A DNA stretch of 64,000 bases from positions 1,798,775 through 1,862,774 of the forward strand of contig CAVTDR010000006.1 of NCBI GenBank assembly GCA_963733535.1, in the 5' to 3' direction. The position numbers and the translations under genes were made by a program. Shown here one piece after another: positions 3,036-63,682 of the stretch. Positions within the stretch are counted from its first letter, which is position 1. Each line of letters opens with the position of its first letter. Below the pieces are notes generated by a model. That model worked only from the letters and a program-made list of their open reading frames with translations, was not told where the DNA came from and did not search any database. This DNA comes from an uncultured Bacteroidota bacterium (GTDB lineage: Bacteria > Bacteroidota > Bacteroidia > Bacteroidales > UBA10428).

Positions 3036-3412
3036 CGAAAAGAGGGGTTTTAGGAGAATGATAGATACTAGATACTGGATAATGGATGCTGGATGTGTGG
3101 GTGTAGTGGAACAGGGGAGAAAGGGTGGGAGACATTTATAAGGGGTTTCACCCCTTGTACCCCACTTACTTCTTTGCCATCGCTGCAAAGAAGTAAGCAA
3201 GAAAAATCTAGACAAAACGAATCCCCACGCGCTCTGCCAGAAGGCTGGAATTTCGAATAAAGTAATCGCCTAAACGGCAGTTTAGAAATACCGGTTTTTG
3301 AATGCATGTTATTAGATTAAGTCATTGTCAATTCTAATCCGTTTATGCTGAAGCCAAGGCCCTTTATTGAAATTCCAAGCCTTCCGGCATTCACCGCTTC
3401 GCCGCCATCGCG

Positions 3413-3763: not shown

Positions 3764-4147
3764 ATGGAAAAACATCTGGAATTTATTCAAGGAGTGATAA
3801 ATCGAATGTGTCAGAACTCATTCCTCATTAAGGGTTGGACAGTAACTCTTGTTTCTGCCTTATTTGCATTGGCGGCAAATGATACGAATCAAATATTTGT
3901 TGTTATTGCATATTTTCCAACTATAATTTTCTGGATTCTGGATAGCTACTACCTTTATCAAGAGCGTATTTTCAGAAAATTATATGATAAGGTTCGTCAA
4001 CAGCAAACTACAGACTATTCACTTTCTACAGAGGAAATTGACAATGGAGTTTCAGATTGGGCAATTGCAGCATTTTCTAAAACGATTATTCTGTTTTATG
4101 GAATTATTATTATAACTCTTCTTATTATATTGTATTGTATTATTTAA
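3764..4147 (+). CDS. small 3-TM membrane protein (hypothetical)
   Basis: ATG at 3764 (MEKHLEF...); the listed ORF start at 3728 is TTG. It has an N-terminal amphipathic helix, then hydrophobic spans at about residues 24-40, 45-65 and 107-127. No family was recognised. Confidence 0.6.
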   Translation: MEKHLEFIQGVINRMCQNSFLIKGWTVTLVSALFALAANDTNQIFVVIAYFPTIIFWILDSYYLYQERIFRKLYDKVRQQQTTDYSLSTEEIDNGVSDWAIAAFSKTIILFYGIIIITLLIILYCII

Positions 4148-5019: not shown

Positions 5020-5931
5020 ATGAAGGCAGTCTGGTCATTATGGACAAAACCACTTTTGCAAACATCAAATAATGGATTATGGTCTTTTAATCATTATCTA
5101 TATTCCTGGATAATTTCAGTAATGACAATAAATCGGTTTTTCAATAGAACAGAATTATATACAGATGATTTTGGGAAACTGATTTTAGTTGATATTCTTA
5201 AAATACCTTTTGATAAAGTATATCTAAATCTTAACGAATTAGAAGATTTAAATATTAATTGGTGGGCAGCAGGTAAGATTCAAACTTATAGTTTACAGAA
5301 AGAACCATTTATTCATTTCGATAGTGATGTGTATTTATGGGATCGTCTTCCGGAAAGAATAATGTCAGCTAATATTTGTGCTCAAAGTCCGGAGTTTTTT
5401 AATAGCAATAACAGGGACTCATATTATAAACTTAAAGAAATTGAAGAAAATATTAAAAATGGCAATGGTTGGTTGCCTGGATATTGGAAAAATTACACAT
5501 CAGGTAGAGTTAATTTTGAAGCTTCTTGCTGTGGAATATTCGGAGGTAATGATTTAAAACTAATAAGAACATATTCAAAAAATGCATTAAATATTATTTG
5601 TCTTAAACGAAACAAGGATATCTGGAATACATGGGGAAATATTGCATTGGGTAATGTTCTTGTAGAACAATTTTTTCTAACATTAACTGTAGCTGCAAAA
5701 GGCAAAACTAATATTGAGTATCTGTTTAATGAATATGAAAACCCTTTCTCTGAAACTACTGAAAATAAATATTACACGCACTTAATATCTACAGCTAAAA
5801 GCGATATTATGGTACAAAAATTAATTGAAAGATTTATATTTCTTAATTGTTTGGAATATGTACCGAGAACTAGAAATGCAATACAGGTAATAGAAAATAA
5901 TTTAATTAAGTACAGCACACAACATGCGTAA
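5020..5931 (+). CDS. hypothetical protein, nucleotide-sugar-transferase-like (WSLWTKP N-terminus, HFDSDVYLW DxD-like motif)
   Basis: Its ATG directly follows the TAG of the TIR-like gene (5017-5019 then 5020). The motifs resemble an uncharacterised glycosyltransferase-like DUF common in Bacteroidota. That assignment is from memory and unverified. Confidence 0.5.
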   Translation: MKAVWSLWTKPLLQTSNNGLWSFNHYLYSWIISVMTINRFFNRTELYTDDFGKLILVDILKIPFDKVYLNLNELEDLNINWWAAGKIQTYSLQKEPFIHFDSDVYLWDRLPERIMSANICAQSPEFFNSNNRDSYYKLKEIEENIKNGNGWLPGYWKNYTSGRVNFEASCCGIFGGNDLKLIRTYSKNALNIICLKRNKDIWNTWGNIALGNVLVEQFFLTLTVAAKGKTNIEYLFNEYENPFSETTENKYYTHLISTAKSDIMVQKLIERFIFLNCLEYVPRTRNAIQVIENNLIKYSTQHA

Positions 5932-5996
5932 ATGTTGCTTTTTTTATATTTATTCCGGGTCGGACAAAGCTCTTATATAGAATGCAATTGTTTTTT

Positions 5997-6092
5997 TTCG
6001 AATCCGGGTCGGACCGGACTTAAGAATTAAATATCAATGAATTAACCCATAAAACATCCTTGTTTTTAACCTTAGAAGGCACTTTTGGGGGG
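5997..6092 (+). repeat. Module A, intact copy (preceded at ~5968-5996 by a solo IS1595 end remnant)
   Basis: ttcgaatccgggtcggaccggacttaagaattaaatatcaatgaattaacccataaaacatccttgtttttaaccttagaaggcacttttgggggg. It starts 66 nt after the stop of 5020..5931. Confidence 0.8.
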
Positions 6093-6096
6093 TGTG

Positions 6097-6347
6097 CTTC
6101 GACAAGCTCAGCAACCGAGGATCGACAGGCTCAGTAACCGTACTTCGACAGGCTCAGTAACCGTACTTCGACAGGCTCAGTAACCGTACTTCGACAGGCT
6201 CAGTAACCGTACTTCGACAAGCTCAGCAACCGTACTTCGACAAGCTCAGTAACCGTACTTCGACAAGCTCAGTAACCGAGGATCGATAGGCTCAGTAACC
6301 GGGGATGGGTAATCGGTAATCGGTGCTTCGACAAGCTCAGCAACCGG
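6097..6347 (+). repeat. 23-bp tandem repeat array (cttcgacaggctcagtaaccgta), ~9 units plus 1 separated unit
   Basis: Direct reading shows units differing only at a/g (acaAg/acaGg) and c/t (cagCaa/cagTaa). No spacers are present. Confidence 0.9.
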
Positions 6348-7873: not shown

Positions 7874-7917
7874 TTTGAGCCTTAATTAATTTTCTTTATT
7901 TGTAGCCATTTTTTTAA

Positions 7918-8011
7918 ATCGAATCGGTCGGACCAATCTTAATGGTTAAATATCAATGAATTAACCCCAAAAATACCCTTGTTTTTGACTTTAGAGGGTG
8001 CTTTTGGGGGG
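7918..8011 (+). repeat. Module A, intact (diverged) copy
   Basis: atcgaatcggtcggaccaatcttaatggttaaatatcaatgaattaaccccaaaaatacccttgtttttgactttagagggtgcttttgggggg. It starts 45 nt after the stop at 7873. Confidence 0.75.
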
Positions 8012-8015
8012 TGTG

Positions 8016-8150
8016 CTTCGACAAGCTCAGCAACCGTACTTCGACAGGCTCAGCAACCGTACTTCGACAGGCTCAGCAACCGTACTTCGACAGGCTCAGT
8101 AACCGTACTTCGACAAGCTCAGTAACCGAGGATCGATAGGCTCAGAAACC
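8016..8150 (+). repeat. 23-bp tandem repeat array (~5-6 units)
   Basis: Same unit as the array at 6097-6347. Confidence 0.9.
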
Positions 8151-8871
8151 GGCGGTCGGTAAACGGTAATCGGTGTTGAGAACAGATGCTGGTTAATGGT
8201 TTCTGGATGCTTGATGTGTGGGTGGGGTGGAACAGGGGTGTGGGAAATCAACAATCCAATCAATAAATAAATTAACCAAATAATCTAAGTTCATTCGAAC
8301 TGGTACAACTTCAATCAAAACACCGTGGGTTGGCCGGGACAAAACCCTGCCTGCCACCGCACGGCCTAAGCCAGGCCAGGTAATGAAGTTTTAGTTCTTC
8401 ACACAGTTCTATAGCAACCTATGAATTGAAACTGAGCCGAACAGATACTGGATACCTTTTTGCGTATCATGCAAAAAGAGCTAACTATGATCACCTTTAC
8501 CGACTGATATTGAATTTCAAGAAATACCTAGATATTAGAGTCAAAACCAATCCTAAAGTAATTATGTCAACAAATCCGGGTTAAACCAGACTTAAAGTTT
8601 AAATAGCAATGAATTAACCACACGTTCGTCGTAGTTTTCTTCAGATTTTAACTATACCGCTTTTAACCTTAGTCGACTGCCATTAAGTGGGATTTAACTG
8701 TACCAAATTTCAATAATTCAAGTACATGTTTTTTTAAGGGCCGTTATATTAATTTAATTTTTAAAGCAGATAGCGAAACATAATCCTGAGAAGTCGGATA
8801 GGGCAACCGAAGCCCACTTTTAGCTTTTTCGTCTTTTTTATAATTGAACCAAACTATTTAATAGTAAGAGT

Positions 8872-10389: not shown

Positions 10390-10413
10390 AAGAATCGAAT
10401 CGGGGTCGGACCA

Positions 10414-10622
10414 GGCTATTATATAGAATACAGTTGTTTTTGATAAAACTCCTTAATTTGTTCTATAGGGATGTAGACAGCGTTGTTTGACAGTGACATC
10501 TCGCGATAGCTTTTATTTGGATCATTATATTTCTTCGACGACTCAAGTATCCTATAGTAGGACAAATAGTTTATCATGTATTTGTCGGAAACCCCATGAA
10601 ATGTTCTGATCCATTCCTTCAA
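10414..10622 (-). pseudogene. truncated IS1595 copy (terminal ~209 bp carrying the transposase C-terminus)
   Basis: Starts with GGCTATTATATAG directly after ..ggggtcggacca. Homology to the full copies ends at ..ccattccttcaa. The ORF 10419..10730 carries only the last ~70 aa of the transposase. Confidence 0.85.
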
Positions 10623-10741
10623 AATTGCAACCGTATGTGTTATATAAGCATATATAAACTTTTGGGCGGAAATGGTATTTAAAAGATGAATTTTACCTCG
10701 ATCAGTGCTTCTATAGTACAAGTAACGCAAGCAATGCAGCT

Positions 10742-10888: not shown

Positions 10889-11716
10889 ATGGATAAAGAC
10901 AAGTTGAAAAGTTATCTTGAGAAGGGAACAGATATAACAGGAGGAGCTGTTGGGGGAGCAATTGGATTAATAGGAGGTCCAGTTGGTGCTATCTTAGGCG
11001 GAGGATTAGGCGTGGCCCTTTCAATTGGAGTAAAAGAAATAATTAGTAGACATCTTTCGGAGAGAGAAAATTCTAGGACTGCTGCGTCAACTGCTTATGT
11101 GATTACAGGGATTAAAGATAAGCTTGATTCAGGCTTGCAAATAAGGACTGATAACTTTTTTGATAATTCTACTGGCAGAAGCTCTGCTGATGAATTATTT
11201 GAGGGTGTATTATTGAAATGTAAAGATCAATATCAGGAAAAGAAAATAAAATATATTTCAAAGATATTTGAGAAAGCAACCTTTGATTATGGAATTTCAG
11301 CAGAGACCGCAAATCAAATATTATCTATGGCTGAGAGCTATACATATCGAAAGTATTGCATAATATCATTTTTTGCACAAAAGGATGAATTGTATGATAC
11401 TTCCAAGTTAATGCAAGAAGTTTATTCATGGTATCCTAATGCTGTATTTTCGTTTGAACTTGAAATTTTAAAACAAGATATATTTGAATTAGTTAATTCT
11501 GGTATTGTAGACCAAAATAATTTAATGATGGTAACAAGAAACGAAGTTGTTCCAGGCGATTTTATACTTACAAAAATAGGGAAAGCTTTATATGATATTA
11601 TGGACTTAGTAGAAATACCAAAGTCAGATATTGACCCAATCTATAATGAACTGCTTTATAAGGAGGAATTTGGCATTAGTGAACATGGAACGAAAAATAA
11701 AATTAAACAAAACTAG
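10889..11716 (+). CDS. hypothetical protein with N-terminal glycine-zipper segment
   Basis: GGAVGGAIGLIGGPVGAILGGGLGVALSIG at residues ~18-47. The rest is predicted soluble and no family was recognised. Confidence 0.5.
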   Translation: MDKDKLKSYLEKGTDITGGAVGGAIGLIGGPVGAILGGGLGVALSIGVKEIISRHLSERENSRTAASTAYVITGIKDKLDSGLQIRTDNFFDNSTGRSSADELFEGVLLKCKDQYQEKKIKYISKIFEKATFDYGISAETANQILSMAESYTYRKYCIISFFAQKDELYDTSKLMQEVYSWYPNAVFSFELEILKQDIFELVNSGIVDQNNLMMVTRNEVVPGDFILTKIGKALYDIMDLVEIPKSDIDPIYNELLYKEEFGISEHGTKNKIKQN

Positions 11717-11816: not shown

Positions 11817-11878
11817 TGTGCTTCGACAGGCTCAGTAACCGGGGAAGGGTAATCGGTGTTGAGAGCAGATGCTGGATA

Positions 11879-12215
11879 CTAATTTAACTTAGACAAGTTT
11901 AATTGAATATATTTTGATGTAATAGTGTTAATACCTGGAAATAACTCGTAGTTTACGGAGAGTTATTCTGGGTATTAACACTTTTCTTTTTTGCTACTTT
12001 TTTCTTTTGTTCATAAGACTAATTTTTGTTTAAAACAACAGCTTTTAATGGAAGCCAAGATCGTCTAATACTAATATTTTGATGGTCCTGATTGGCCATA
12101 TTCTTACTTAATCGAGACTATATCAAGGCCGACAAAGGGAGCCTTAAAGCTGGGGCAGAAGGTCTTTAAAAAAGCCTTAAAGTATCCAGAGATGCTTCCC
12201 TTTGCCGTACCAAAA
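11879..12215 (-). ncRNA. candidate bridge/seek RNA region (3' non-coding arm of the IS110-like element); identical regions at 30330-30666 and 32002-32338
   Basis: 337 nt of non-coding DNA lie downstream of the transposase stop, versus 78 nt upstream. There is a long imperfect hairpin at 11925-11981 and short matches to the insertion-site and element-end sequences (see findings). No folding or covariance model was run. Confidence 0.3.
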
Positions 12216-13472
12216 TCATGCTGCAGTTTTTATGTATTGTATTTTATGCTCGTAATCAAATGCTTGATTGTTCTTAATTAAGGAATGGATCGTTCGTAAC
12301 AATTTGCGTGATATAGCAATAATTGCCTTTTTCTTTTCCATTCCTTTATTCACATACATTGTGTATTGTTCATGGTAAATACCCCCCTTCTTAACCATTC
12401 GCAAGGCAAGAAAATATAAACTGGTACGTAAATGCTCATTGCCTACTTTTGATATTCTTCTGTTACCTCTATGGTTACCTGAACTGTTTTCAATCAAATT
12501 TAGTCCTCCAAACTTAAGTAGTTCTTTGTTTGTCTTGAATTGGCTAAATTCTCCGATCTCAGAAATAATTGTTGCTATGGTAATATCACCTATCCCTTTT
12601 ATGGTTCTGAGAATATAATATTCTTCCAGGGAAGCCAATGATGCTTTGATCTGATTCTCAACAGCTGACATTTGTGTGTCAAACAACTCTATTTGAACAA
12701 TATATGCTAAAACCATGCTCTGATAGGATTCAAGCCCATCTCTAACTCCAATAGTATTAAAAGCAGCTGTAATAAGCTCTTCAGCTTTTTTTATATTACA
12801 TCTTCCCCTGCTTATTTTTTGGAGTTCTTTTATCAATGGCTCCAGACCTAGCTTTATAATACTCCCTGGACTTGGATGGTTTTTTAGTAAAAATGTACTG
12901 GTTTTGCAACTAATGTCTTTAAACAAATCTAAATATTCTGGAAAGTATAAAGACAAAATAGCATGTATACGGTTCACAACCCTTTTACGGTCAGCCTGCA
13001 AAGCTTTTCTGGAACGTGTTAACTCTCTCACATTCGCCTTTACCCCTTGAGGCAGATTTACCCTTAGGCTGCTTCCAATAAGAACTACTTGAGCGATTAC
13101 TTTGGGATCTTTATGATCTGTTTTATTAGGGGTATTGTCTGTTACATCTTTGAATCGTTTAGTATGCTTTCCATTAACCTGCACGAGGGAGTAATTTGTA
13201 TTGTTATGAATGTAATATGCCAATGGGAGCCAGTAATTTCCTGTTGACTCTACTGCGATTACTACATTTTCAATATCGTTAACCTTTGTAAATCTGTTTA
13301 TTTTACCTATTAACAAATTAAATCCTTCTCTTGTGTTGGAGAACTGAAAGCTCTTTGCTGATTCATAACTCAATGTTAAGAAAAAGCCGTAATGATTGCT
13401 TTTACCGATGTCGATTCCAACTATCAAAGTTTTTCCGTTTACTTTTATAAATTTGTACTGTTTATTTTTCAT
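12216..13472 (-). CDS. IS110-family DEDD transposase/recombinase
   Basis: 418 aa. It has an N-terminal RuvC-like DEDD domain (VGIDIGKSNH, ESTGNYW) and a C-terminal HhH/Transposase_20-type region (IKGIGDITIATIISEIGEFSQF...SSGNHRGNRRISKVGNEHLR). Confidence 0.85.
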   Translation of the reverse strand: MKNKQYKFIKVNGKTLIVGIDIGKSNHYGFFLTLSYESAKSFQFSNTREGFNLLIGKINRFTKVNDIENVVIAVESTGNYWLPLAYYIHNNTNYSLVQVNGKHTKRFKDVTDNTPNKTDHKDPKVIAQVVLIGSSLRVNLPQGVKANVRELTRSRKALQADRKRVVNRIHAILSLYFPEYLDLFKDISCKTSTFLLKNHPSPGSIIKLGLEPLIKELQKISRGRCNIKKAEELITAAFNTIGVRDGLESYQSMVLAYIVQIELFDTQMSAVENQIKASLASLEEYYILRTIKGIGDITIATIISEIGEFSQFKTNKELLKFGGLNLIENSSGNHRGNRRISKVGNEHLRTSLYFLALRMVKKGGIYHEQYTMYVNKGMEKKKAIIAISRKLLRTIHSLIKNNQAFDYEHKIQYIKTAA

Positions 13473-13605
13473 AAAGACTGCTATTTTAGATTCTTAAGTC
13501 AAATCAAACTTAGCAGTCTTTTTTTATTCTGCAATATAGTAAGCTGGATATTTGATTCTGGATGTGTGGGAATGGGAGTGGTTGAACAAGGGTGTGGGAA
13601 ATTAA

Positions 13606-13877: not shown

Positions 13878-16800
13878 ATGAAAAAGAAACTTTTACATAC
13901 GAATTTATTTTTGATTGGATTATTACTATTAATCTTTATTCCTGTCATAGCACAAACATCATTAAGCGATGAAACACGTTTACCCTGGGCAACTTCACAA
14001 AAAGAATTTTTCAGGGACTGGCTGATTATCGGTGGATTTCCGAATCCGGATGGCAATGGTTTTGACACAGACTATTTCCAGGCTGGCGGTGGCGAAGCAA
14101 ATATTTCTGCCAAAGAGGGAATGACGCAAAAACTGCCTGACGGTATGACGTTTGAATGGAAAAAATATGAATCACCGTATAATTACATCAATTTTTATAA
14201 CATTCTTAAAGATGTAGCCTACAGTACAAAAGTGGCTTATGCTTTTAGAAAAGTCCAGCGTGCCACTGATGGAAAAGTTATCCTTTCATTCGGGAACAAT
14301 GTGGGTAACAAAATTTGGGTAAACGGAAAACTTATTTACTCAAATAAAACAGATAATACTGCCGGCGAGAATAGCCAGGTTGAAGTCGATATGGTTAAAG
14401 GGGAAAATTCAATAATTCTAAAATCGGTTGATGGCGGCTGGACCTGGGGTTTCTGGATGCGTCTGATTGAACCCGGAAAGTTATCCCTTGCACAGGATTT
14501 CCAGCTAACGCCCTCAATTAAAAAAACGGTTGAAAAAAATAAGCTTATTGTTAAAACAGACAGAACGCTCAATCCTGAAATTCAAAAGATAGACGTAACG
14601 GTTAAAGTAAGAGCCGCAGGTGGAGTTATAGTAGCGGAAAAGACAGCAAAGCGCTGCGAAGAAGTTGCTTTTAATACGGAAGATTGGAACGAAGGCGTTT
14701 ATGATATGTGTATGTCAAGCATTAATAATAAAGGCGAAATAGTAACCGCATATTTATACTGGTATAAAGGTGATGCCATTCAGGCAGCGAAAGAACTTGT
14801 GGCAAGCGTATCCCAAAATCCTTTAACACCAAAAGAAATTGTGCATGTTATGCTATCTGAATTAATATTCGACAGAGTCGGAAGCGATTTATCAAAAATT
14901 GATTCCTCACGGATAGGACAACTTTATTCTCCGTTAATGGAATATGAAGAGTTAATTAATAATTCAAACGTGCGTGAAAATGGATTTGTAAGGTTAGCAT
15001 ACAGGGATGGGGTTGACAACACCCCCCAGTTTTGTCGTGCTTACCTGCCTGGTAATTATGACCCTGATAAAAAATGGCCGATTGTTATAAATCTGCATGG
15101 TTACTATGGAGCAAATCCGGTTTATGTAAAATGGTGGTCAATTGATTTGCGGCATATGGATTTGGTTGATAAATTCCCTGTAATTGACCTTGAACCGCAT
15201 GGTCGCGGAAATACAAGTTATACCGGAATCGGAGAGAAAGACATTCTAAAATGCATTGAGATGGCAAAAGAGAAATTTAACATTGATGAAGACCGTATCT
15301 ATTTGAAAGGTGAATCGATGGGCGGCGGCGGAACCTGGTATGTTGGAACAAGACACACTGATATTTTTGCTGCTATTGCACCTGTTTACGGTGGCTGGGA
15401 TTATCACTCCAATATGGATAAAGAACAATTTTCCAAATTATCGGAACGCGAAATTTTTGATTTGGAAAAAAGCAGCAGTTTTGCACAGGCAGATGCATTG
15501 TTAACAACACCGGTTTTTGTAACTCACGGTGATATTGACGAATCGGTTGATGTGAAATACTCACGGTATGCGATTAACCTGCTTCAAAGATGGGGTTATG
15601 ATATTCGTTACCACGAGTATCCGGGTTTTGGACATGAGGGAATTCCATATACTGATGAAGTAATATCCTGGTTCCTGCAGCATAAGAAAAATGCCGCACC
15701 GGAAAAGGTTCGCGTAAGATCAGCGGCTCTAAATTCAGCTCATTCAAACTGGGTAAAAATATTGCAGCGGGAAAATCCGTATGCATTTATTGAAGCTGAA
15801 GCGGAAGTATTAATTAACAATACAATCAGACTTGCTACTGAAAATGCACTTGCTGTCGAGCTTACTCCGCCGGCTGAATTAATTAACCCAAACAAAAAAG
15901 TTACTGTGGTATGGAATGTAGAGGATATTAGAGAAGTTGAAATAAAAGACGGCAAAATAACTTTGTTTGATAAAAATTATAAGCCGGCAGTACTAATTAA
16001 AAATCCTGAAATTGAAGGCCCAATTTCTCATTTAGCTACAACGCCGTTTGCAGTTATAATCGGAACTTCATCCAAAGATTCTTTAATGAATAAATTATGC
16101 AGGATGAAAGCAAACGAATTTGTAAGTTATTGGAAAAACTGGCAGAAGTATGAACCACGGGTTTTCCTGGATACTGAATTAAATGAAAGTGATATGAAAA
16201 AATATTCACTGATACTTTACGGAGATACAAAGGCAAATTTAATTACCAAAAAACTTGGAAATAAAATTCCTTTGGAAATTTCTTCCAATAAAATTGTATT
16301 GGCCGGAAGAACATTTGAAGCTGAGGATGCCTGTGTGCAGATGGTATATCCTCATCCGTTTAACAATGAAAGGTATGTTGCTGTAATTGGTGCAACATCA
16401 GGTGCGGGAATGTTTTTTTGTGATAATAGAAACGCAGCATATGATTTCTCCATACAAGATGGAAGTATTGGAAATAGCAGACTTGGATTCCCGGCCGAAA
16501 AACTAATTATAGCCAGAGGTATCTTTAATTATGACTGGAAAATTAATGATAAATTCCTTGACACAGGTGATGCTGAAATGATAAAGAATTGTCCACGCAA
16601 AATAGTAAATCCTGATTTAACTACATCAATTGTAAACTTACCAGTTGTAAGTGAAAAAGTATTAAAATCACTCTCGGGAAAATACGAAATACAGCCTGGT
16701 ACGGCAGTTACAGTATATGTTGAAGGTAGTAACCTGATGGGAAAAAGTCCCGATGGACAAACTTTTCAGTTGTATCCTATTTCAGAAACTGAATATTTTA

Positions 16801-16910: not shown

Positions 16911-16972
16911 CCGGGACATACTTTTATAGCCTTTGATTCCTAGATTATTTATAACGAATCGGGGTCGGACCA

Positions 16973-17288
16973 GGCTATTATATAGAATACAATTGTTTTT
17001 GATAAAACTCCTTAATTTGTTGTATAGGGATGTAGACAGCGTTGTTTGAAAGTGACATCTCCCGATAACTTTTATTTGGATCATTGTATTTCTTCGACGA
17101 CTCCAGTATCCGATAGTAAGACAGGTAGTTTGTCATGTATTTGTCGGAAACCCCATGAAATGTTCTGATCCATTCCTTCAATTTACTATGTGTATTATTT
17201 ACGTGCTGTAAATGGTAAACTTTGGGCTTGGTCCACTTCACATCGTATCCTGGGATTCTGAAGTGTGTTAGGTTTTTCTTCTTAGCTA
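16973..17288 (-). pseudogene. truncated IS1595 copy (~316 bp of the end carrying the transposase C-terminus)
   Basis: Begins GGCTATTATATAG directly after ..ggggtcggacca, and homology ends at ..cttagcta. The ORF 16978..17418 carries the last ~105 aa of the transposase fused to unrelated sequence. Confidence 0.85.
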
Positions 17289-21919: not shown

Positions 21920-22015
21920 TTAATAATTAAGACCTTAATTTGTTGTTTACATACAACAGATTTTTAAAATGTATAACCTAAAGGTTGACCTTAGAGGGCA
22001 CTTTTTGGGGGTGTG

Positions 22016-22082
22016 CTTCGACAAGCTCAGCAACCGTACTTCGACAAGCTCAGTAACCGTACTTCGACAGGCTCAGTAACCG
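22016..22082 (+). repeat. 23-bp tandem repeat array (3 units)
   Basis: Same unit as the arrays at 6097 and 8016. It is preceded by a partial Module A (21986-22011). Confidence 0.9.
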
Positions 22083-22861
22083 GCGGTCGGTAAACGGTAA
22101 TCGGTGTTGAGAACAGATGCTGGTTAATGGTTTCTGGATGCTTGATGTGTGGGTGGGGTGGAACAGGGGTGTGGGAAATCAACAATCCAATCAATAAATA
22201 AATTAACCAAATAATCTAAGTTCATTCGAACTGGTACAACTTCAATCAAAACACCGTGGGTTGGCCGGGACAAAACCCTGCCTGCCACCGCACGGCCTAA
22301 GCCAGGCAGGCAGGGCGATGGCGACGAGGCGGTGAATGGCGGAAGGTTTGGAATTTCTTATAAAGGGCCTTGGCTTTAGCATAAACGGATTAGAAAAGAC
22401 AATGAATTAATCTAATAACATGAATTTAAAAACCTGTATATCGAACAAGGCCGTTTAGGCGTCTACTTTGTTAGAAATTCCTGCCTTCTGGCAGAGCGCG
22501 GTGGGGATCGTTATGTCCCTGCCTGCCACCGCACAGCCCAAGCCGGGCAGGCAGGGTCATAGGGGGTGAAACCCCCTGTAAATTCCGGCTCTCCCTTCTC
22601 TTCCTCCCTTCATGGTTCGGGTTGGGCTATCTTGGGCTAAATTAACCTAAGCATTCAGGGTTTTGTCCCGGCCAACCCACGGTGCGTTTATTGGGGTATG
22701 TTGTTATTTGGATGTTGCTGCAATAACTCCAGATGAACAAGAAAATATGAAGCAGTCAAATGTTATTTTGAACCCTGTGTTTTTGCAATTGCTGAGTAAT
22801 TTATCCCAAATAGTTCAAAAAAAGTATTTATGTTGCCTTTTGCAAATGGTATCTTTGCTTT

Positions 22862-25687: not shown

Positions 25688-25957
25688 TTTAGCGGTCAGC
25701 TTTCAGCAGTCAGCGATCAGCAGGGAAAGGTAATCGGTGCTTCGACAAGCTCAGCAACCGAAGATCGACAAGCTCAGGAACCCGAACAGATACTGGATAC
25801 CTTTTTGCGTATCATGCAAAAAGAGCAAACTATGATCACCTTTACCGACAAATTTCTTCCATTTGCCGAATAAATACGGGTTGTTATTTGAGACAATATT
25901 ATTTTTAGAATCTAAATTCATTTTTAAATTTTAATTTATCGAGCAATTAGATATAAT

Positions 25958-28198: not shown

Positions 28199-29090
28199 AT
28201 GTTTTTTTTATGCAGTGAAAGTAGGTCCGCAGGATTACATTCGTTCTACTATTATGTTTTAATTATGTGAAGTGTTTGTAATAATAATGTTAATCCAAGC
28301 TGAGGTGCTCTTTTGTGTAACCTGATAGGAAATCGAATCCGGGTCGGACCAAACTTTAGAATTAATTATCAATGAAATAACCCTTAATCGGTAAGAGGTA
28401 GTCGGTGTGGGAATAGATACCTGCCAGCCCGGCTTGGCCCTCCGCATGGCAGGCAGACTGGATGTGAAAAACTTCATAATTTGAATGATTTAAGGGTTTT
28501 CATACAGAATACGGAATGATAATAATTAAGGTTTAAGTAGTTGCGTTTAGAAAACGGTAAGAATTCAAGTTGCTTTTTATTACTGACAATGGATCATCCA
28601 CTACCTGGCAATGAACTATAGTATTGGTACAGTTCACCTTATCTGATGGGGCAATTATAGTATGCGTCGAAAAATACAATTGATTTTATAACTTTTAAAG
28701 ACTTCACTTATCTTTAGACAATAAAATTCCTATTGTGGCATTTTATATATGTTAGATTCAATTAACCTATTGCAGTTTTTAGTATAGACAACCAACTCTA
28801 AGCATTTGAATTATTAACAAAATTTTGAGATTTTTCAAAAGTGAAAATGAAGCAAGTCGCGCTCATTACCATGTTCACATTTGGATTTGGGCATGCCGAA
28901 TTACAAGCCCAAGTAAGCAGTAATGAAATTGTCCCTATATCTGATGGTTCAGTATGTACTAACACCCCAATTTACATACGGGCAAGCTCTTTTTCGAACC
29001 AATCCATGGCCAAGACATAAAGAAGAACTTCAAAAGATATTTTTTCCGGATATTTATATTGGGATTACTTTTTGATATAAAAACGAACTA

Positions 29091-30329: not shown

Positions 30330-32001
30330 CTAATTTAACTTAGACAAGTTTAATTGAATATATTTTGATGTAATAGTGTTAATACCTGGAAATAACTCGT
30401 AGTTTACGGAGAGTTATTCTGGGTATTAACACTTTTCTTTTTTGCTACTTTTTTCTTTTGTTCATAAGACTAATTTTTGTTTAAAACAACAGCTTTTAAT
30501 GGAAGCCAAGATCGTCTAATACTAATATTTTGATGGTCCTGATTGGCCATATTCTTACTTAATCGAGACTATATCAAGGCCGACAAAGGGAGCCTTAAAG
30601 CTGGGGCAGAAGGTCTTTAAAAAAGCCTTAAAGTATCCAGAGATGCTTCCCTTTGCCGTACCAAAATCATGCTGCAGTTTTTATGTATTGTATTTTATGC
30701 TCGTAATCAAATGCTTGATTGTTCTTAATTAAGGAATGGATCGTTCGTAACAATTTGCGTGATATAGCAATAATTGCCTTTTTCTTTTCCATTCCTTTAT
30801 TCACATACATTGTGTATTGTTCATGGTAAATACCCCCCTTCTTAACCATTCGCAAGGCAAGAAAATATAAACTGGTACGTAAATGCTCATTGCCTACTTT
30901 TGATATTCTTCTGTTACCTCTATGGTTACCTGAACTGTTTTCAATCAAATTTAGTCCTCCAAACTTAAGTAGTTCTTTGTTTGTCTTGAATTGGCTAAAT
31001 TCTCCGATCTCAGAAATAATTGTTGCTATGGTAATATCACCTATCCCTTTTATGGTTCTGAGAATATAATATTCTTCCAGGGAAGCCAATGATGCTTTGA
31101 TCTGATTCTCAACAGCTGACATTTGTGTGTCAAACAACTCTATTTGAACAATATATGCTAAAACCATGCTCTGATAGGATTCAAGCCCATCTCTAACTCC
31201 AATAGTATTAAAAGCAGCTGTAATAAGCTCTTCAGCTTTTTTTATATTACATCTTCCCCTGCTTATTTTTTGGAGTTCTTTTATCAATGGCTCCAGACCT
31301 AGCTTTATAATACTCCCTGGACTTGGATGGTTTTTTAGTAAAAATGTACTGGTTTTGCAACTAATGTCTTTAAACAAATCTAAATATTCTGGAAAGTATA
31401 AAGACAAAATAGCATGTATACGGTTCACAACCCTTTTACGGTCAGCCTGCAAAGCTTTTCTGGAACGTGTTAACTCTCTCACATTCGCCTTTACCCCTTG
31501 AGGCAGATTTACCCTTAGGCTGCTTCCAATAAGAACTACTTGAGCGATTACTTTGGGATCTTTATGATCTGTTTTATTAGGGGTATTGTCTGTTACATCT
31601 TTGAATCGTTTAGTATGCTTTCCATTAACCTGCACGAGGGAGTAATTTGTATTGTTATGAATGTAATATGCCAATGGGAGCCAGTAATTTCCTGTTGACT
31701 CTACTGCGATTACTACATTTTCAATATCGTTAACCTTTGTAAATCTGTTTATTTTACCTATTAACAAATTAAATCCTTCTCTTGTGTTGGAGAACTGAAA
31801 GCTCTTTGCTGATTCATAACTCAATGTTAAGAAAAAGCCGTAATGATTGCTTTTACCGATGTCGATTCCAACTATCAAAGTTTTTCCGTTTACTTTTATA
31901 AATTTGTACTGTTTATTTTTCATAAAGACTGCTATTTTAGATTCTTAAGTCAAATCAAACTTAGCAGTCTTTTTTTATTCTGCAATATAGTAAGCTGGAT
32001 A
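30330..32001 (-). mobile_element. IS110/IS1111-like insertion sequence, copy 2 (1672 bp), head-to-tail with copy 3
   Basis: The left junction is cagatactggata|ct. The element ends ..agtaagctggata at 32001 and copy 3 starts at the next base. Confidence 0.85.
30667..31923 (-). CDS. IS110-family DEDD transposase/recombinase
   Basis: 418 aa, identical to 12216..13472. Confidence 0.85.
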   Translation of the reverse strand: MKNKQYKFIKVNGKTLIVGIDIGKSNHYGFFLTLSYESAKSFQFSNTREGFNLLIGKINRFTKVNDIENVVIAVESTGNYWLPLAYYIHNNTNYSLVQVNGKHTKRFKDVTDNTPNKTDHKDPKVIAQVVLIGSSLRVNLPQGVKANVRELTRSRKALQADRKRVVNRIHAILSLYFPEYLDLFKDISCKTSTFLLKNHPSPGSIIKLGLEPLIKELQKISRGRCNIKKAEELITAAFNTIGVRDGLESYQSMVLAYIVQIELFDTQMSAVENQIKASLASLEEYYILRTIKGIGDITIATIISEIGEFSQFKTNKELLKFGGLNLIENSSGNHRGNRRISKVGNEHLRTSLYFLALRMVKKGGIYHEQYTMYVNKGMEKKKAIIAISRKLLRTIHSLIKNNQAFDYEHKIQYIKTAA

Positions 32002-33673
32002 CTAATTTAACTTAGACAAGTTTAATTGAATATATTTTGATGTAATAGTGTTAATACCTGGAAATAACTCGTAGTTTACGGAGAGTTATTCTGGGTATTA
32101 ACACTTTTCTTTTTTGCTACTTTTTTCTTTTGTTCATAAGACTAATTTTTGTTTAAAACAACAGCTTTTAATGGAAGCCAAGATCGTCTAATACTAATAT
32201 TTTGATGGTCCTGATTGGCCATATTCTTACTTAATCGAGACTATATCAAGGCCGACAAAGGGAGCCTTAAAGCTGGGGCAGAAGGTCTTTAAAAAAGCCT
32301 TAAAGTATCCAGAGATGCTTCCCTTTGCCGTACCAAAATCATGCTGCAGTTTTTATGTATTGTATTTTATGCTCGTAATCAAATGCTTGATTGTTCTTAA
32401 TTAAGGAATGGATCGTTCGTAACAATTTGCGTGATATAGCAATAATTGCCTTTTTCTTTTCCATTCCTTTATTCACATACATTGTGTATTGTTCATGGTA
32501 AATACCCCCCTTCTTAACCATTCGCAAGGCAAGAAAATATAAACTGGTACGTAAATGCTCATTGCCTACTTTTGATATTCTTCTGTTACCTCTATGGTTA
32601 CCTGAACTGTTTTCAATCAAATTTAGTCCTCCAAACTTAAGTAGTTCTTTGTTTGTCTTGAATTGGCTAAATTCTCCGATCTCAGAAATAATTGTTGCTA
32701 TGGTAATATCACCTATCCCTTTTATGGTTCTGAGAATATAATATTCTTCCAGGGAAGCCAATGATGCTTTGATCTGATTCTCAACAGCTGACATTTGTGT
32801 GTCAAACAACTCTATTTGAACAATATATGCTAAAACCATGCTCTGATAGGATTCAAGCCCATCTCTAACTCCAATAGTATTAAAAGCAGCTGTAATAAGC
32901 TCTTCAGCTTTTTTTATATTACATCTTCCCCTGCTTATTTTTTGGAGTTCTTTTATCAATGGCTCCAGACCTAGCTTTATAATACTCCCTGGACTTGGAT
33001 GGTTTTTTAGTAAAAATGTACTGGTTTTGCAACTAATGTCTTTAAACAAATCTAAATATTCTGGAAAGTATAAAGACAAAATAGCATGTATACGGTTCAC
33101 AACCCTTTTACGGTCAGCCTGCAAAGCTTTTCTGGAACGTGTTAACTCTCTCACATTCGCCTTTACCCCTTGAGGCAGATTTACCCTTAGGCTGCTTCCA
33201 ATAAGAACTACTTGAGCGATTACTTTGGGATCTTTATGATCTGTTTTATTAGGGGTATTGTCTGTTACATCTTTGAATCGTTTAGTATGCTTTCCATTAA
33301 CCTGCACGAGGGAGTAATTTGTATTGTTATGAATGTAATATGCCAATGGGAGCCAGTAATTTCCTGTTGACTCTACTGCGATTACTACATTTTCAATATC
33401 GTTAACCTTTGTAAATCTGTTTATTTTACCTATTAACAAATTAAATCCTTCTCTTGTGTTGGAGAACTGAAAGCTCTTTGCTGATTCATAACTCAATGTT
33501 AAGAAAAAGCCGTAATGATTGCTTTTACCGATGTCGATTCCAACTATCAAAGTTTTTCCGTTTACTTTTATAAATTTGTACTGTTTATTTTTCATAAAGA
33601 CTGCTATTTTAGATTCTTAAGTCAAATCAAACTTAGCAGTCTTTTTTTATTCTGCAATATAGTAAGCTGGATA
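32002..33673 (-). mobile_element. IS110/IS1111-like insertion sequence, copy 3 (1672 bp)
   Basis: It starts exactly 1672 bp after copy 2. The right flank is ttggatgcctgcctgcc.. (the hairpin module). Confidence 0.85.
32339..33595 (-). CDS. IS110-family DEDD transposase/recombinase
   Basis: 418 aa, identical to the other two copies. Confidence 0.85.
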   Translation of the reverse strand: MKNKQYKFIKVNGKTLIVGIDIGKSNHYGFFLTLSYESAKSFQFSNTREGFNLLIGKINRFTKVNDIENVVIAVESTGNYWLPLAYYIHNNTNYSLVQVNGKHTKRFKDVTDNTPNKTDHKDPKVIAQVVLIGSSLRVNLPQGVKANVRELTRSRKALQADRKRVVNRIHAILSLYFPEYLDLFKDISCKTSTFLLKNHPSPGSIIKLGLEPLIKELQKISRGRCNIKKAEELITAAFNTIGVRDGLESYQSMVLAYIVQIELFDTQMSAVENQIKASLASLEEYYILRTIKGIGDITIATIISEIGEFSQFKTNKELLKFGGLNLIENSSGNHRGNRRISKVGNEHLRTSLYFLALRMVKKGGIYHEQYTMYVNKGMEKKKAIIAISRKLLRTIHSLIKNNQAFDYEHKIQYIKTAA

Positions 33674-34271
33674 TTGGATGCCTGCCTGCCTGGCTTGGCC
33701 CTCCGCATGGCAGGCAGGCTTGATGTGTGGGTGGGGTGGAACAATGAGTAATTAGCAATTAACAATTACTGGTGATGCGTTAATTTTTATAAAACCAGCT
33801 AGATATGCTTATTTTATTGACTTATACGCTGTTTTATTTTTTTTTGATTTGAAATTAATTTTTGTTCCAGGGTAAATTAATTTATTTGAAGCAATTGATA
33901 TTAAATGTTTTTGAAATTACCATATCAGGATTTACGGTGAATTTGACATTTAATGCATCAATACTAATTAACAATTAACAATTCAAGAGTGTGAGGATTG
34001 ATAATTAGGGTTTGGTGCATTGGAACTGGCGCAGCCATAATCAAAGCACCGTGGGCTGACCCTGACAAAACGCGATGGCGACGGAGCTGTGAATGGCGGA
34101 AGGCTTGGAATTTCTTATAAAGGGCCTTGGCTTTGAAATAAATCGTCAAATCAATAAATCAACAAATCAATAAATGGATCGTGGGGATGTAAATTCAGGC
34201 TCTCCCTTCTCTTCCTCCCTTCAAAGTTCGGGTTGGGCTATCTTGGGATATATTAACCAAAGCATTCAGGG

Positions 34272-54372: not shown

Positions 54373-54840
54373 AAAGCAACCGACCTTCCCTAAGTTCGGC
54401 TGAGGCTGTGCCTCTGTCGAACATATCTCCAAAGGCTTTGCCTTTAAAAACCAGGCGATAGCCTGAAAAGATAGATTCGGCTTAGGCACAGCCTAATCCG
54501 AACGAAAGACAATATTTCGCCCACTACGGGGCTTTTGGGCGTGGGGACATCTCTTTCTACCTATATTCCGCTCCTAACGGAGCTTATTCCGATTACCTCT
54601 TACCGATTTCCCACACCCCACACATCCTGCCTGCCTGCCTGCGGAGGATCAAGCCAGGCCAGGCATCTAGCATCCAGAATCCAGTATCAGTTCCCACACT
54701 GATTACCGATTACCGTTTTTCCACCTCTTACCAGTTTTTCACCGATTACCGATTACTGATTACCTCCTAATCTTCACCTCTTCACAGCGTTTCAGCATTT
54801 TTTTCTGTACCTTGCAGTATCGTATAAATACCCATGACAC

Positions 54841-63436: not shown

Positions 63437-63682
63437 TCAGTAATCAGTAATCAGTGTTGGAATGGATGCTGGATACTGGATACTGGATGCCTGCCTGGCT
63501 TGGGCTATGCGATGGCAGGCAGGCTGGATGTGCGGGAGTTGGGAGAGGAGTATGGGGTGTGTGTAAAATCGGTAATTGGTAATTGGCGTGAAGAAGAATT
63601 AGAAATTAACAATTAGTAATTAGTAATTGGGGGAAAGGTAACCGGTACCGATTACTGATTACTGATTACCCTGGTTTTGCCA

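Follow-up and report, generated by a model that had tools for sequence, protein, structure and literature searches.

Positions 12043 to 12215 on the minus strand of the window, the whole 64,000-nucleotide stretch of DNA that we analyzed, very probably constitute the bridge/seek RNA gene of an active IS110-family insertion sequence. The ends of this 173-nt candidate were set by conservation, not by transcript mapping. An earlier note on this DNA had proposed that the non-coding arm 3′ of the transposase gene encodes such an RNA. A conserved structure, a covariance model, and the covariation of four loop segments with target and donor DNA, all found by comparing homologues, support that proposal, while the strand, the extent of the RNA, and the core had to be revised.

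The insertion sequence and its recombinase

Base-by-base comparison revealed three identical (100%) copies of a 1665-bp insertion sequence within the window, which indicates recent activity of the element. Copy A lies at 11879 to 13543 on the minus strand, including one AG core, and the other two copies (B and C) lie at 30330-31994 and 32002-33666. To define the ends, we used relatives whose flanking sequences diverge exactly at the element boundaries. In the orientation of the transposase, copy A reads AG-CTTACTATATTGCAG ... GTCTAAGTTAAATT-AG. The left end, AG-CTTACTATATTGCAG, is unchanged in all relatives compared, while the right-end terminus is GTCTAAGTTAAATT-AG in the group that contains the window element and L002 and ..TTAAATT-AG in the L175-L180 group. 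The non-coding arms are thus 337 nt downstream of the gene (11879-12215) and 71 nt upstream. All strings quoted in the earlier note are present where it placed them, and its length for the downstream arm stands; its 78 nt for the upstream arm counts the flanking heptamer. The corrected boundaries are relevant to annotation.

The only long open reading frame of the element (12216 to 13472, minus strand) encodes an IS110-family DEDD/Ser recombinase of 418 aa. The protein matches PF01548 (N-terminal DEDD RuvC-like domain, E = 3.5e-29) and PF02371 (C-terminal Tnp domain, E = 5.4e-23), both above the curated cut-offs, and scores 236 bits with the NCBIfam model NF033542, "IS110 family RNA-guided transposase", for which the cut-off is 140. 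Distant homology was detected to the recombinases of IS621 (8wt6, E = 1.6e-12) and ISCro4 (9t56). Residues D21, E75, D119, D122, and S331-G332 are invariant across 19 relatives (alignment A1). With HMMER, E75, D119, D122, and the SSG serine motif (S330/S331) align in the IEATG, NKTDxxD, and ESG blocks of IS621; the first catalytic D falls outside the aligned stretch.

A protein search yielded relatives graded from 98% to ~40% identity, with transposases of 413-422 aa. The closest labeled relatives come from a Bacteroidales MAG (80%) and a Balneolales MAG (59%). Scans of genomes and metagenomes with protein alignment mostly gave relatives of 26-36% identity, because the peptide patterns were too general, and the useful close relatives came through exact-protein look-ups. 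The 3′ arms and flanks compared below were taken from ~18 distinct elements, on contigs encoding relatives and at a few loci from the genome and metagenome scans.

A conserved two-stem-loop RNA on the transposase strand

The 3′ arms of the relatives align well. In the alignment, the 173 nt that follow the transposase stop fold into two stem-loops and a closing stem. Both stem-loops have a long basal stem that leads to an internal loop and, at the apex, to a conserved hairpin. Stem-loop 1 (12130 to 12207, minus strand), the candidate target stem-loop, has target guides in its internal loop and an invariant apical hairpin, AAGGCU...AGACCUU; 11 of the 13 pairs of its basal stem show compensatory changes. 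Stem-loop 2 (12054 to 12129, minus strand) has candidate donor guides in its internal loop and the apical hairpin AUGGCC...GGACCAU, with compensatory changes in 9 pairs.

For quantitation, we set aside the pairs that RNAalifold drew between guide segments, which left 44 pairs to be counted across 13 sequences. In these relatives, 96.5% of pair cells were paired, compared with 85.4% in shuffles and 30-48% when partners were slid by 1-3 columns. Changes on both sides of the pair (compensatory changes) occurred in 22 of the 44 pairs. None of 500 shuffles reached the observed values, although these counts are not true probabilities, since the relatives share ancestry. Folded as a single sequence, the 173 nt are modestly more stable than shuffles (z-score -1.8).

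A covariance model, R1, was built from the structure alignment of the 13 relatives; its E-values are rough. R1 scores 183 bits at each copy in the window (12043-12215, 30494-30666, and 32166-32338). In relatives sharing 37-81% protein identity (L081, L001, L002, L082-L087, and L135), the model likewise places the RNA just past the 3′ end of the transposase gene and on its strand. At 37-40% identity, the scores were 69.8 bits for L085, 38.6 for L086, 26 for L087, 17.5 for L135, and 9.7 for L088. Searches with Rfam 15 gave no match at the gathering score across the whole window and noise alone at E up to 10 between 11700 and 13700.

The strand was decided by the wobble pairs. In the conserved two-stem-loop region, 31 pair cells are G·U and 4 are A·C, and therefore the RNA is read from the transposase (minus) strand, rather than from the + strand that the hairpin argument of the earlier note implied. 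We considered whether the functional RNA could instead come from the + strand, antisense to the transposase gene, and act as an antisense regulator. Several observations could be taken this way. Single-sequence folding energies do not tell the strands apart, as 12043-12215 folds as stably on the + strand as on the - strand; a long hairpin at 11924-11982 folds better on the + strand, where a T-tract comes after it; and a promoter-like TTAACT-N18-TATATT lies on the + strand at 11884-11913. However, promoter-like matches of this kind are no commoner than in shuffled sequence, and the hairpin lies outside the two-stem-loop region and is missing in relatives that keep the RNA. Moreover, reading the two-stem-loop region from the + strand breaks the 31 G·U cells and gains 4. 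We therefore consider an antisense regulator extremely improbable and treat the RNA below as encoded on the minus strand.

Insertion at AG within heptamer arrays

On the transposase strand, the core reads as the dinucleotide AG, and on the opposite strand as CT. The two junctions in the L176/L177/L179 group are TTTAGCG-AG-CTTACT and AAATT-AG-GAGCCAG, which have AG alone in common; across L176, L177, L179, and L168, AG or CCAG alone is common to both junctions. Copy A has on its right the target heptamer TATCCAG (11872 to 11878, minus strand; CTGGATA on the + strand), which belongs to a host heptamer array outside the element. On its left is the target TATCC followed by the AG core (13544 to 13550, minus strand; the corresponding CT of the + strand is at 13544-13545).

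The flanks of most relatives are likewise tandem arrays of heptamers, such as TATCCAG CATCCAG..., TAGGGAG TAGGGAG..., TTGGAAG CCAGAAG..., and many successive GATGGAA units. At 63469-63489, beside the same palindrome that follows the insertion site of copies B and C, lies a paralogous array that is unoccupied, CTGGATA CTGGATA CTGGATG. Where copies are in tandem, whole heptamers separate them: one between B and C (1665+7) and three in L161/L162 (1665+21).

Together, these data show insertion at AG within ..CC-AG-TATCCAG, without target duplication. Since the target is one unit of a heptamer array, the element appears to be flanked by a 7-bp repeat. On this view, the head-to-tail copies in the window result from two hits in a single heptamer array, and further insertion sites are predicted, for example at 63469-63486. 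A literature search found no IS110 elements in heptanucleotide repeats. An AG recombination point has also been reported for ISPpu9 (PMC12288879).

Target guides in loop 1

The 5′ strand of the internal loop of stem-loop 1 (loop 1) carries the candidate right-target guide, CUGGAUACU (12181 to 12189, minus strand). This segment is the reverse complement of AG+TATCCAG and would pair with the transposase-sense strand of the core and right target; the + strand of the window reads (A)GTATCCAG here. We compared such guides with flanking DNA in 15 elements, shuffling the elements' guides against each other's DNA in 20,000 permutations, which, given shared ancestry, do not yield strict probabilities. 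The right-target guide matches its own flank over a mean of 7.7 nt, compared with 3.2 nt for the flanks of others, and no permutation (0/20,000) reached this value.

Across the relatives, the right-target guide tracks 12 different flank sequences. Thus, the loop 1 5′ strand is CUCCUUAC where the right flank is TAGGGAG (with one G·U), CUGGUUUC where it is AAACCAG, CUGCCAAC for TTGGCA.., CUUCCAAC for TTGGAAG, and CUUCCGAC for TCGGAAG. Likewise, CUGGCUCC accompanies GAGCCAG, GGGUCAGG accompanies CCTGACCC, UAGAUUGC accompanies CAATCTA, and GGACGGUG accompanies CACCGTCC.

The 3′ strand of loop 1 carries the candidate left-target guide, CCAG (12150-12153, minus strand), which is identical to the last two nucleotides of the left target plus the AG core. 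Its mean match to its own left flank is 5.0 nt, compared with 3.2 nt for those of others (0/20,000 permutations, 15 elements). In the window's own subgroup, this guide is just 4 nt, while matches of 6-7 nt occur in L176, L179, L085, L135, and L089. Examples of the loop 1 3′ strand with its left flank plus core are AGCGAG with TAGCG-AG, GCGAAG with GCGA-AG, UUCGAAG with TTCGA-AG, UGUCAAG with TGTCA-AG, and AUUAAAG with ATTAA-AG. Some insertions ignore the left-target guide, as the left flank is AATAATA-AG in L174 and GTAACA-AG in L175. The CCAG segment had been missed in the first reading of the sequence.

We asked how the 14-nt string GTATCCAGAGATGC (12182-12195), which had been read as two half-guides, relates to these segments. 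The TATCCAG half belongs to the right-target guide and is borne out by covariation. The AGATGC half (GCAUCU in the RNA) is coincidental: relatives conserve it despite having other right flanks (TAGGGAG, AAACCAG, TTGGAAG, and TCGGAAG), its GC sits in the basal stem (pairs 21-76 and 22-75), and the same element is flanked differently, by TATCTGT, at copies B and C.

Our initial reading took the 7-nt flanking repeat CTGGATA as a long shared core or a target-site duplication, with the loop 1 5′ strand as a guide that recognizes the donor (right-end tip plus core). The two cores imply different circle junctions, ...AAATTAGTATCCAG-CTTACT... for the 7-nt core and ...AAATTAG-CTTACT... for AG. The same 7-mer is present at both ends in the window and in the closest relatives, and GTATCCAG can also be read as the right-end G plus the heptamer. 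We dropped this reading because of the L176/L179 junctions, because the unoccupied array with the same neighbors already holds tandem heptamers, and because tandem copies are 1 or 3 heptamers apart. In addition, the loop 1 3′ strand matches the left flank over 6-7 nt in five elements, and these sequences are absent from the donor. A 7-nt core is thus very improbable, and we assign the heptamer to the target array and the core to AG.

The covariation with flanks also bears on whether the 3′ arm needs to encode a guide RNA. The arm could instead consist of DNA-level binding sites for the recombinase, or of a generic 3′-UTR stabilizer or terminator, with the matches to the ends being repeated end sequences. 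The arm does lie near the right end, where recombinases often bind, and it has no Rfam match. However, compensatory changes, together with G·U cells that outnumber A·C by 31 to 4, are the signature of an RNA on one strand, the variable loop segments track host flanks that lie outside the element, and no U-tract follows the two stem-loops on the transposase strand. We give this explanation very little credence compared with a bridge/seek RNA.

Candidate donor guides and handshake-like positions

The internal loop of stem-loop 2 (loop 2) carries two segments that match the ends of the element. On its 5′ strand, the candidate right-donor guide AGUAAG (12103 to 12108, minus strand) is complementary to the start of the left end, CTTACT. 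In distant relatives, guide and end change together, as in AGCAAG/CTTGCT, AGCAUU/AATGCT, AGCAUA/TATGCT, and AGCGUU/AACGCT. The mean match was 5.5 nt for own ends and 4.5 nt for those of others (0/20,000 permutations, 15 elements). This strand stops at the AG core and does not pair with it.

On the 3′ strand of loop 2, the candidate left-donor guide AUUAG (12071-12075, minus strand; CTAAT on the + strand) is identical to the right end ATT plus the AG core. This guide is ACCAG in L085 and L086, whose right ends finish in ..ACC-AG, and UACAUUAG or UAAAUUAG elsewhere; UACAUUAG goes with the right end TACATT-AG. Own matches averaged 5.8 nt, compared with 5.1 nt (5/20,000 permutations, 15 elements). 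The donor guides are constant in the close group because the element ends are constant there. Since they vary little, and mainly between two clades, the permutation values overstate independence.

The 3′ strands of both loops extend beyond the core. After CCAG in loop 1, the handshake-like CU (12148-12149, minus strand) is identical to the first two nucleotides of the left end; the two bases at this place are the same as the left end's first two in 17/18 and 18/18 elements. After AUUAG in loop 2, the handshake-like U (12070, minus strand) is identical to the first nucleotide of the right target, an agreement found in 17/18 elements (0/20,000 permutations). By analogy with the handshake guides of IS621, each 3′ strand would extend into the DNA that becomes its neighbor after strand exchange.

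These assignments account for the end matches pointed out in the earlier note. ATACTAAT at 12068-12075 is indeed identical to the element end at 11876-11883, and its CTAAT part (12071-12075) covaries with the ends; the handshake-like extension explains why 8 nt match the integrated end although the donor guide has 5 nt. Of the second match described, CTTACT (12103-12108) covaries with the left end, while ACTATAT (~12117-12123) is coincidental: its place is in the basal stem of stem-loop 2, and its sequence differs among relatives that all have the invariant left end. The donor-side matches had seemed at odds with the published strand rule. They fit if AG on the transposase strand is taken as the core and the guide order is inverted, as in IS1111-type seekRNAs, which resolves the puzzle.

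A model that would accommodate these data follows the mechanism of IS621. The RNA would be transcribed with the transposase gene, probably from a promoter formed on circularization, and would fold into the two stem-loops and be bound by the recombinase. The two internal loops could then hold target and donor together for strand exchange at the shared AG dinucleotide. Loop 1 would read the target ..CC-AG-TATCCAG, with CUGGAUACU pairing with the sense strand of AG and the right target and CCAG pairing with the opposite strand across the left target and AG. Loop 2 would read the circle junction ..AAATT-AG-CTTACT..., with AGUAAG pairing with the sense strand at the start of the left end and AUUAG with the opposite strand across the right-end tip and AG. 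The 1-2 bases past each 3′ strand would match the partner DNA joined after strand exchange. With such guides, the element could insert more than once in one heptamer array. We infer the expression and processing of the RNA, its binding by the protein, and the chemistry. The circle junction is predicted to read ...GTCTAAGTTAAATT-AG-CTTACTATATTG....

Promoter-like sequences and hairpins in the non-coding arms

Promoter-like elements lie at opposite ends of the insertion sequence. Reading from the sequence, we noted a -35-like TTGTCT in the right end (11891 to 11896, minus strand) and a -10-like TATATT in the left end (13533 to 13538, minus strand), the latter within the invariant block CTTACTATATTGCAG. 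An excised circle would bring these to a distance of 17 nt from each other, and TTGAC[TA]-N17-TATATT or TATAAT spans the inferred junction in distant relatives. The TTGTCT/TATATT pair fits the junction promoters known in the IS110 family (PMC11187229) and could serve as one here.

The long imperfect hairpin picked out in the earlier note, at 11925-11981, is real and is stronger on the + strand. It is not part of the RNA, since it lies outside the conserved region, between the RNA and the right end, and is missing from the L175-L180 group, where the RNA is kept. The hairpin (11924-11982) and the T-rich tract that follows it (UUUUCUUUUUU... on the + strand) together span 11924 to 12012. Direct folding gave -28.6 kcal/mol on the + strand and -23.7 on the - strand, the difference coming from two positions that pair as G·U on the + strand but are mismatched as A·C on the - strand. 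Relatives retain an A·C mismatch on the transposase strand, and one pair shows a compensatory change. A terminator scan with a loop limit of 8 nt did not list this hairpin because its loop is 12 nt. We rate at about even the chances that the hairpin is an intrinsic terminator for transcription that enters the element in the direction opposite to the transposase gene. The adjoining 33-nt A-rich block shows more conservation than a terminator requires.

At the other end, a 5′-UTR hairpin, AAAGACUGCU...AGCAGUCUUU (13473 to 13521, minus strand; -18.1 kcal/mol, z-score -4.0), abuts the ATG, and its arms change together in L173 and L175. No guide-like variable segment was found in this hairpin among the relatives compared. 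The earlier note had allowed that the guide loops might map to its 78-nt 5′ arm; that arm is invariant among relatives with different targets. Of the outcomes that, according to the note, would speak against its proposal, neither a lack of conserved structure and covariation nor guide loops in the 5′ arm was thus observed. As the 71-nt left end lacks target-linked variation, the guides are not in the 5′ arm.

Comparison with known bridge and seekRNA systems

Bridge RNAs have been predicted for 86-93% of catalogued family members (PMC11208160), and IS110-type elements with a downstream non-coding region were already noted by Siddiquee et al. (PMC11187229). We compared our candidate with three described systems.

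The IS621 bridge RNA (PMC11208160, PMC11208158, PDB 8wt6) also has two stem-loops with internal loops for target and donor, each of which pairs with opposite strands on either side of a dinucleotide core, and its handshake positions, described by Hiraizumi et al. (PMC11208158), likewise adjoin the 3′ strands. The recombinases are homologous but distant. In IS621, the 5′ strand of a loop pairs with the bottom strand left of the CT core over 8-9 nt, while the 3′ strand pairs with the top strand right of the core over 4-7 nt (PMC11208160). Read from the CT strand, loop 1 of our element has guides of 9 nt (5′) and 4 nt (3′), which matches the IS621 pattern exactly. The systems differ in that the IS621 RNA lies in the left end, upstream of the gene, whereas here it lies 3′ of the gene. 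In our element, the core is AG on the transposase strand (CT on the other), the order of the guides relative to the gene is inverted compared with IS621, and the donor loop's 5′ strand stops short of the core, unlike in the published IS621 rule.

Both the 3′ location and the inverted guide order have been reported for IS1111-type seekRNAs by Siddiquee et al. (PMC11187229). As in our element, the seekRNAs of ISEc11, ISPa11, and ISKpn4 (PMC11187229) are encoded in a long non-coding 3′ region on the transposase strand, and the segment complementary to the top strand comes first (5′), followed by the one that matches the bottom strand, with an overlap at the insertion point. Other shared features are insertion without target duplication, natural retargeting of relatives by changes in the loops alone, and, as a candidate feature here, a promoter split between the two ends; junction promoters have been reported for the IS110 family (PMC11187229). 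However, IS1111 transposases are 330-350 aa (PMC11187229), compared with 418 aa here, and IS1111 elements have subterminal inverted repeats of 7-17 bp, while our element has none of at least 7 bp: between the first and last 90 nt, no inverted match exceeds 6 nt and none is symmetrically placed. The targets also differ, as IS1111-type elements insert in REP, attC, or transposon inverted repeats and our element inserts in one unit of a heptamer tandem array.

ISPpu9 of Pseudomonas putida (PMC12288879) is set apart, by its description, by a strong promoter of its own and no junction promoter. It also encodes two further small RNAs, Asr9 and Ssr9, and its insertion targets are REP/BIME palindromes (PMC12288879).

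By these features, the element is an IS110-family bridge-recombinase element of mixed subgroup. The position of the RNA and the guide order are IS1111-like, while the lack of inverted repeats and the 418-aa enzyme do not. One possibility, which we put forward tentatively and hold to be somewhat less probable than its opposite, is that the relatives form an undescribed clade of bridge recombinases, ~418 aa in size, whose elements lack subterminal inverted repeats, encode the bridge RNA on the 3′ side, and use AG as their core. Such a clade would be specialized on heptanucleotide tandem arrays and retargeted between hosts by adapting 7 nt of one loop to the repeat unit found there, and its terminator, facing inward, would protect the guide RNA against transcription read in from the antisense side. 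Engineering could then draw on a series of orthogonal guide-target pairs already validated in nature, and the clade would exemplify mobile elements that follow microsatellite-like repeats.

The element is otherwise a clear but ordinary new example of a known bridge/seek RNA system and opens no new question. Its value lies in a well-resolved natural series of at least 12 target sequences, each matched by a guide, and in the agreement, by sequence comparison, with the published pairing rules in a branch distant from IS621, which would confirm these rules there, including the handshake positions. As the earlier note shows, a bridge RNA can be located, together with three of the four guide segments, by reading nothing but the raw sequence.

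Adjacent insertions and an unoccupied target

Copies B and C of the element, an IS110-family insertion sequence, are identical and arranged head to tail (30330-33666), with a single CTGGATA heptamer (31995-32001) as the spacer between them. This pair represents two insertions into adjacent units of the same heptamer array, and we rejected the reading of 30330-33666 as a dimer. In a relative with 86% identity (loci L161 and L162), the copies have a like arrangement, with a spacer of three heptamers.

A perfect target, CCAGTATCCAGTATCCAG, is present without an insertion at 63469-63489. This unoccupied site, a paralog of the one where B and C inserted, is adjoined by a REP-like palindrome, CCTGCCTGGCTTGG...GGCAGGCAGG. 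Allowing at most one mismatch, we found nine target matches in the window, compared to 0.5 expected by chance. Near-matches occur at 3068-3085, 3931-3941, 5477-5487, 16167-16177, and 54674-54684.

Among related elements, the left flanks of L174 (AATAATA-AG) and L175 (GTAACA-AG) do not match the left-target guide of the predicted RNA. These mismatches suggest that site choice would be dominated by the 8-9-nt right-target guide.

Hairpins within the element

In copy A, a 22-bp hairpin and the T-rich tract that comes after it (11924-12012, + strand) together resemble a terminator that points towards the interior of the element, in antisense orientation relative to the transposase gene. Beside it is a 33-nt A/T-rich block (GAACAAAAGAAAAAAGUAGCAAAAAAGAAAA on the transposase strand) that is nearly invariant across relatives, down to 57% protein identity. 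A second hairpin, AAAGACUGCU...AGCAGUCUUU, lies in the 5′-UTR (13473-13521, - strand) and abuts the transposase start codon. Both of its arms vary in concert among relatives, and it may have a role in translation control.

Surroundings of copy A and other repeats

Directly upstream of copy A is a 275-aa ORF (10889-11716, + strand) with a Gly-rich N-terminus, for which no Pfam match was found. A single unit of a 23-nt tandem repeat, GTACTTCGACAGGCTCAGTAACC, lies directly outside copy A. Arrays of this repeat (5984-6301, 7903-8174, 22013-22081, 25737-25782, and 11818-11840) are part of a larger dispersed module that also holds TTGACCTTAGAGGGCACTTTTTGGGGG.

Another tandem repeat (46-600) has a 51-nt period and at least seven copies with 74-90% identity. 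A dispersed repeat of ~300 nt is present in four copies with 78-97% identity (599-898, 1830-2129, 10397-10696, and 16956-17255), one of which overlaps a 103-aa ORF (10419-10730, minus strand); this repeat could be a relic of a different mobile element. Finally, GC-rich palindromes of the family GCCTGCCTGCC...GGCAGGCAGGC, which are similar to REP elements, occur at 22276-22315, 22517-22556, 28416-28466, 33677-33727, 63482-63532, and other positions, frequently adjoining heptamer arrays.
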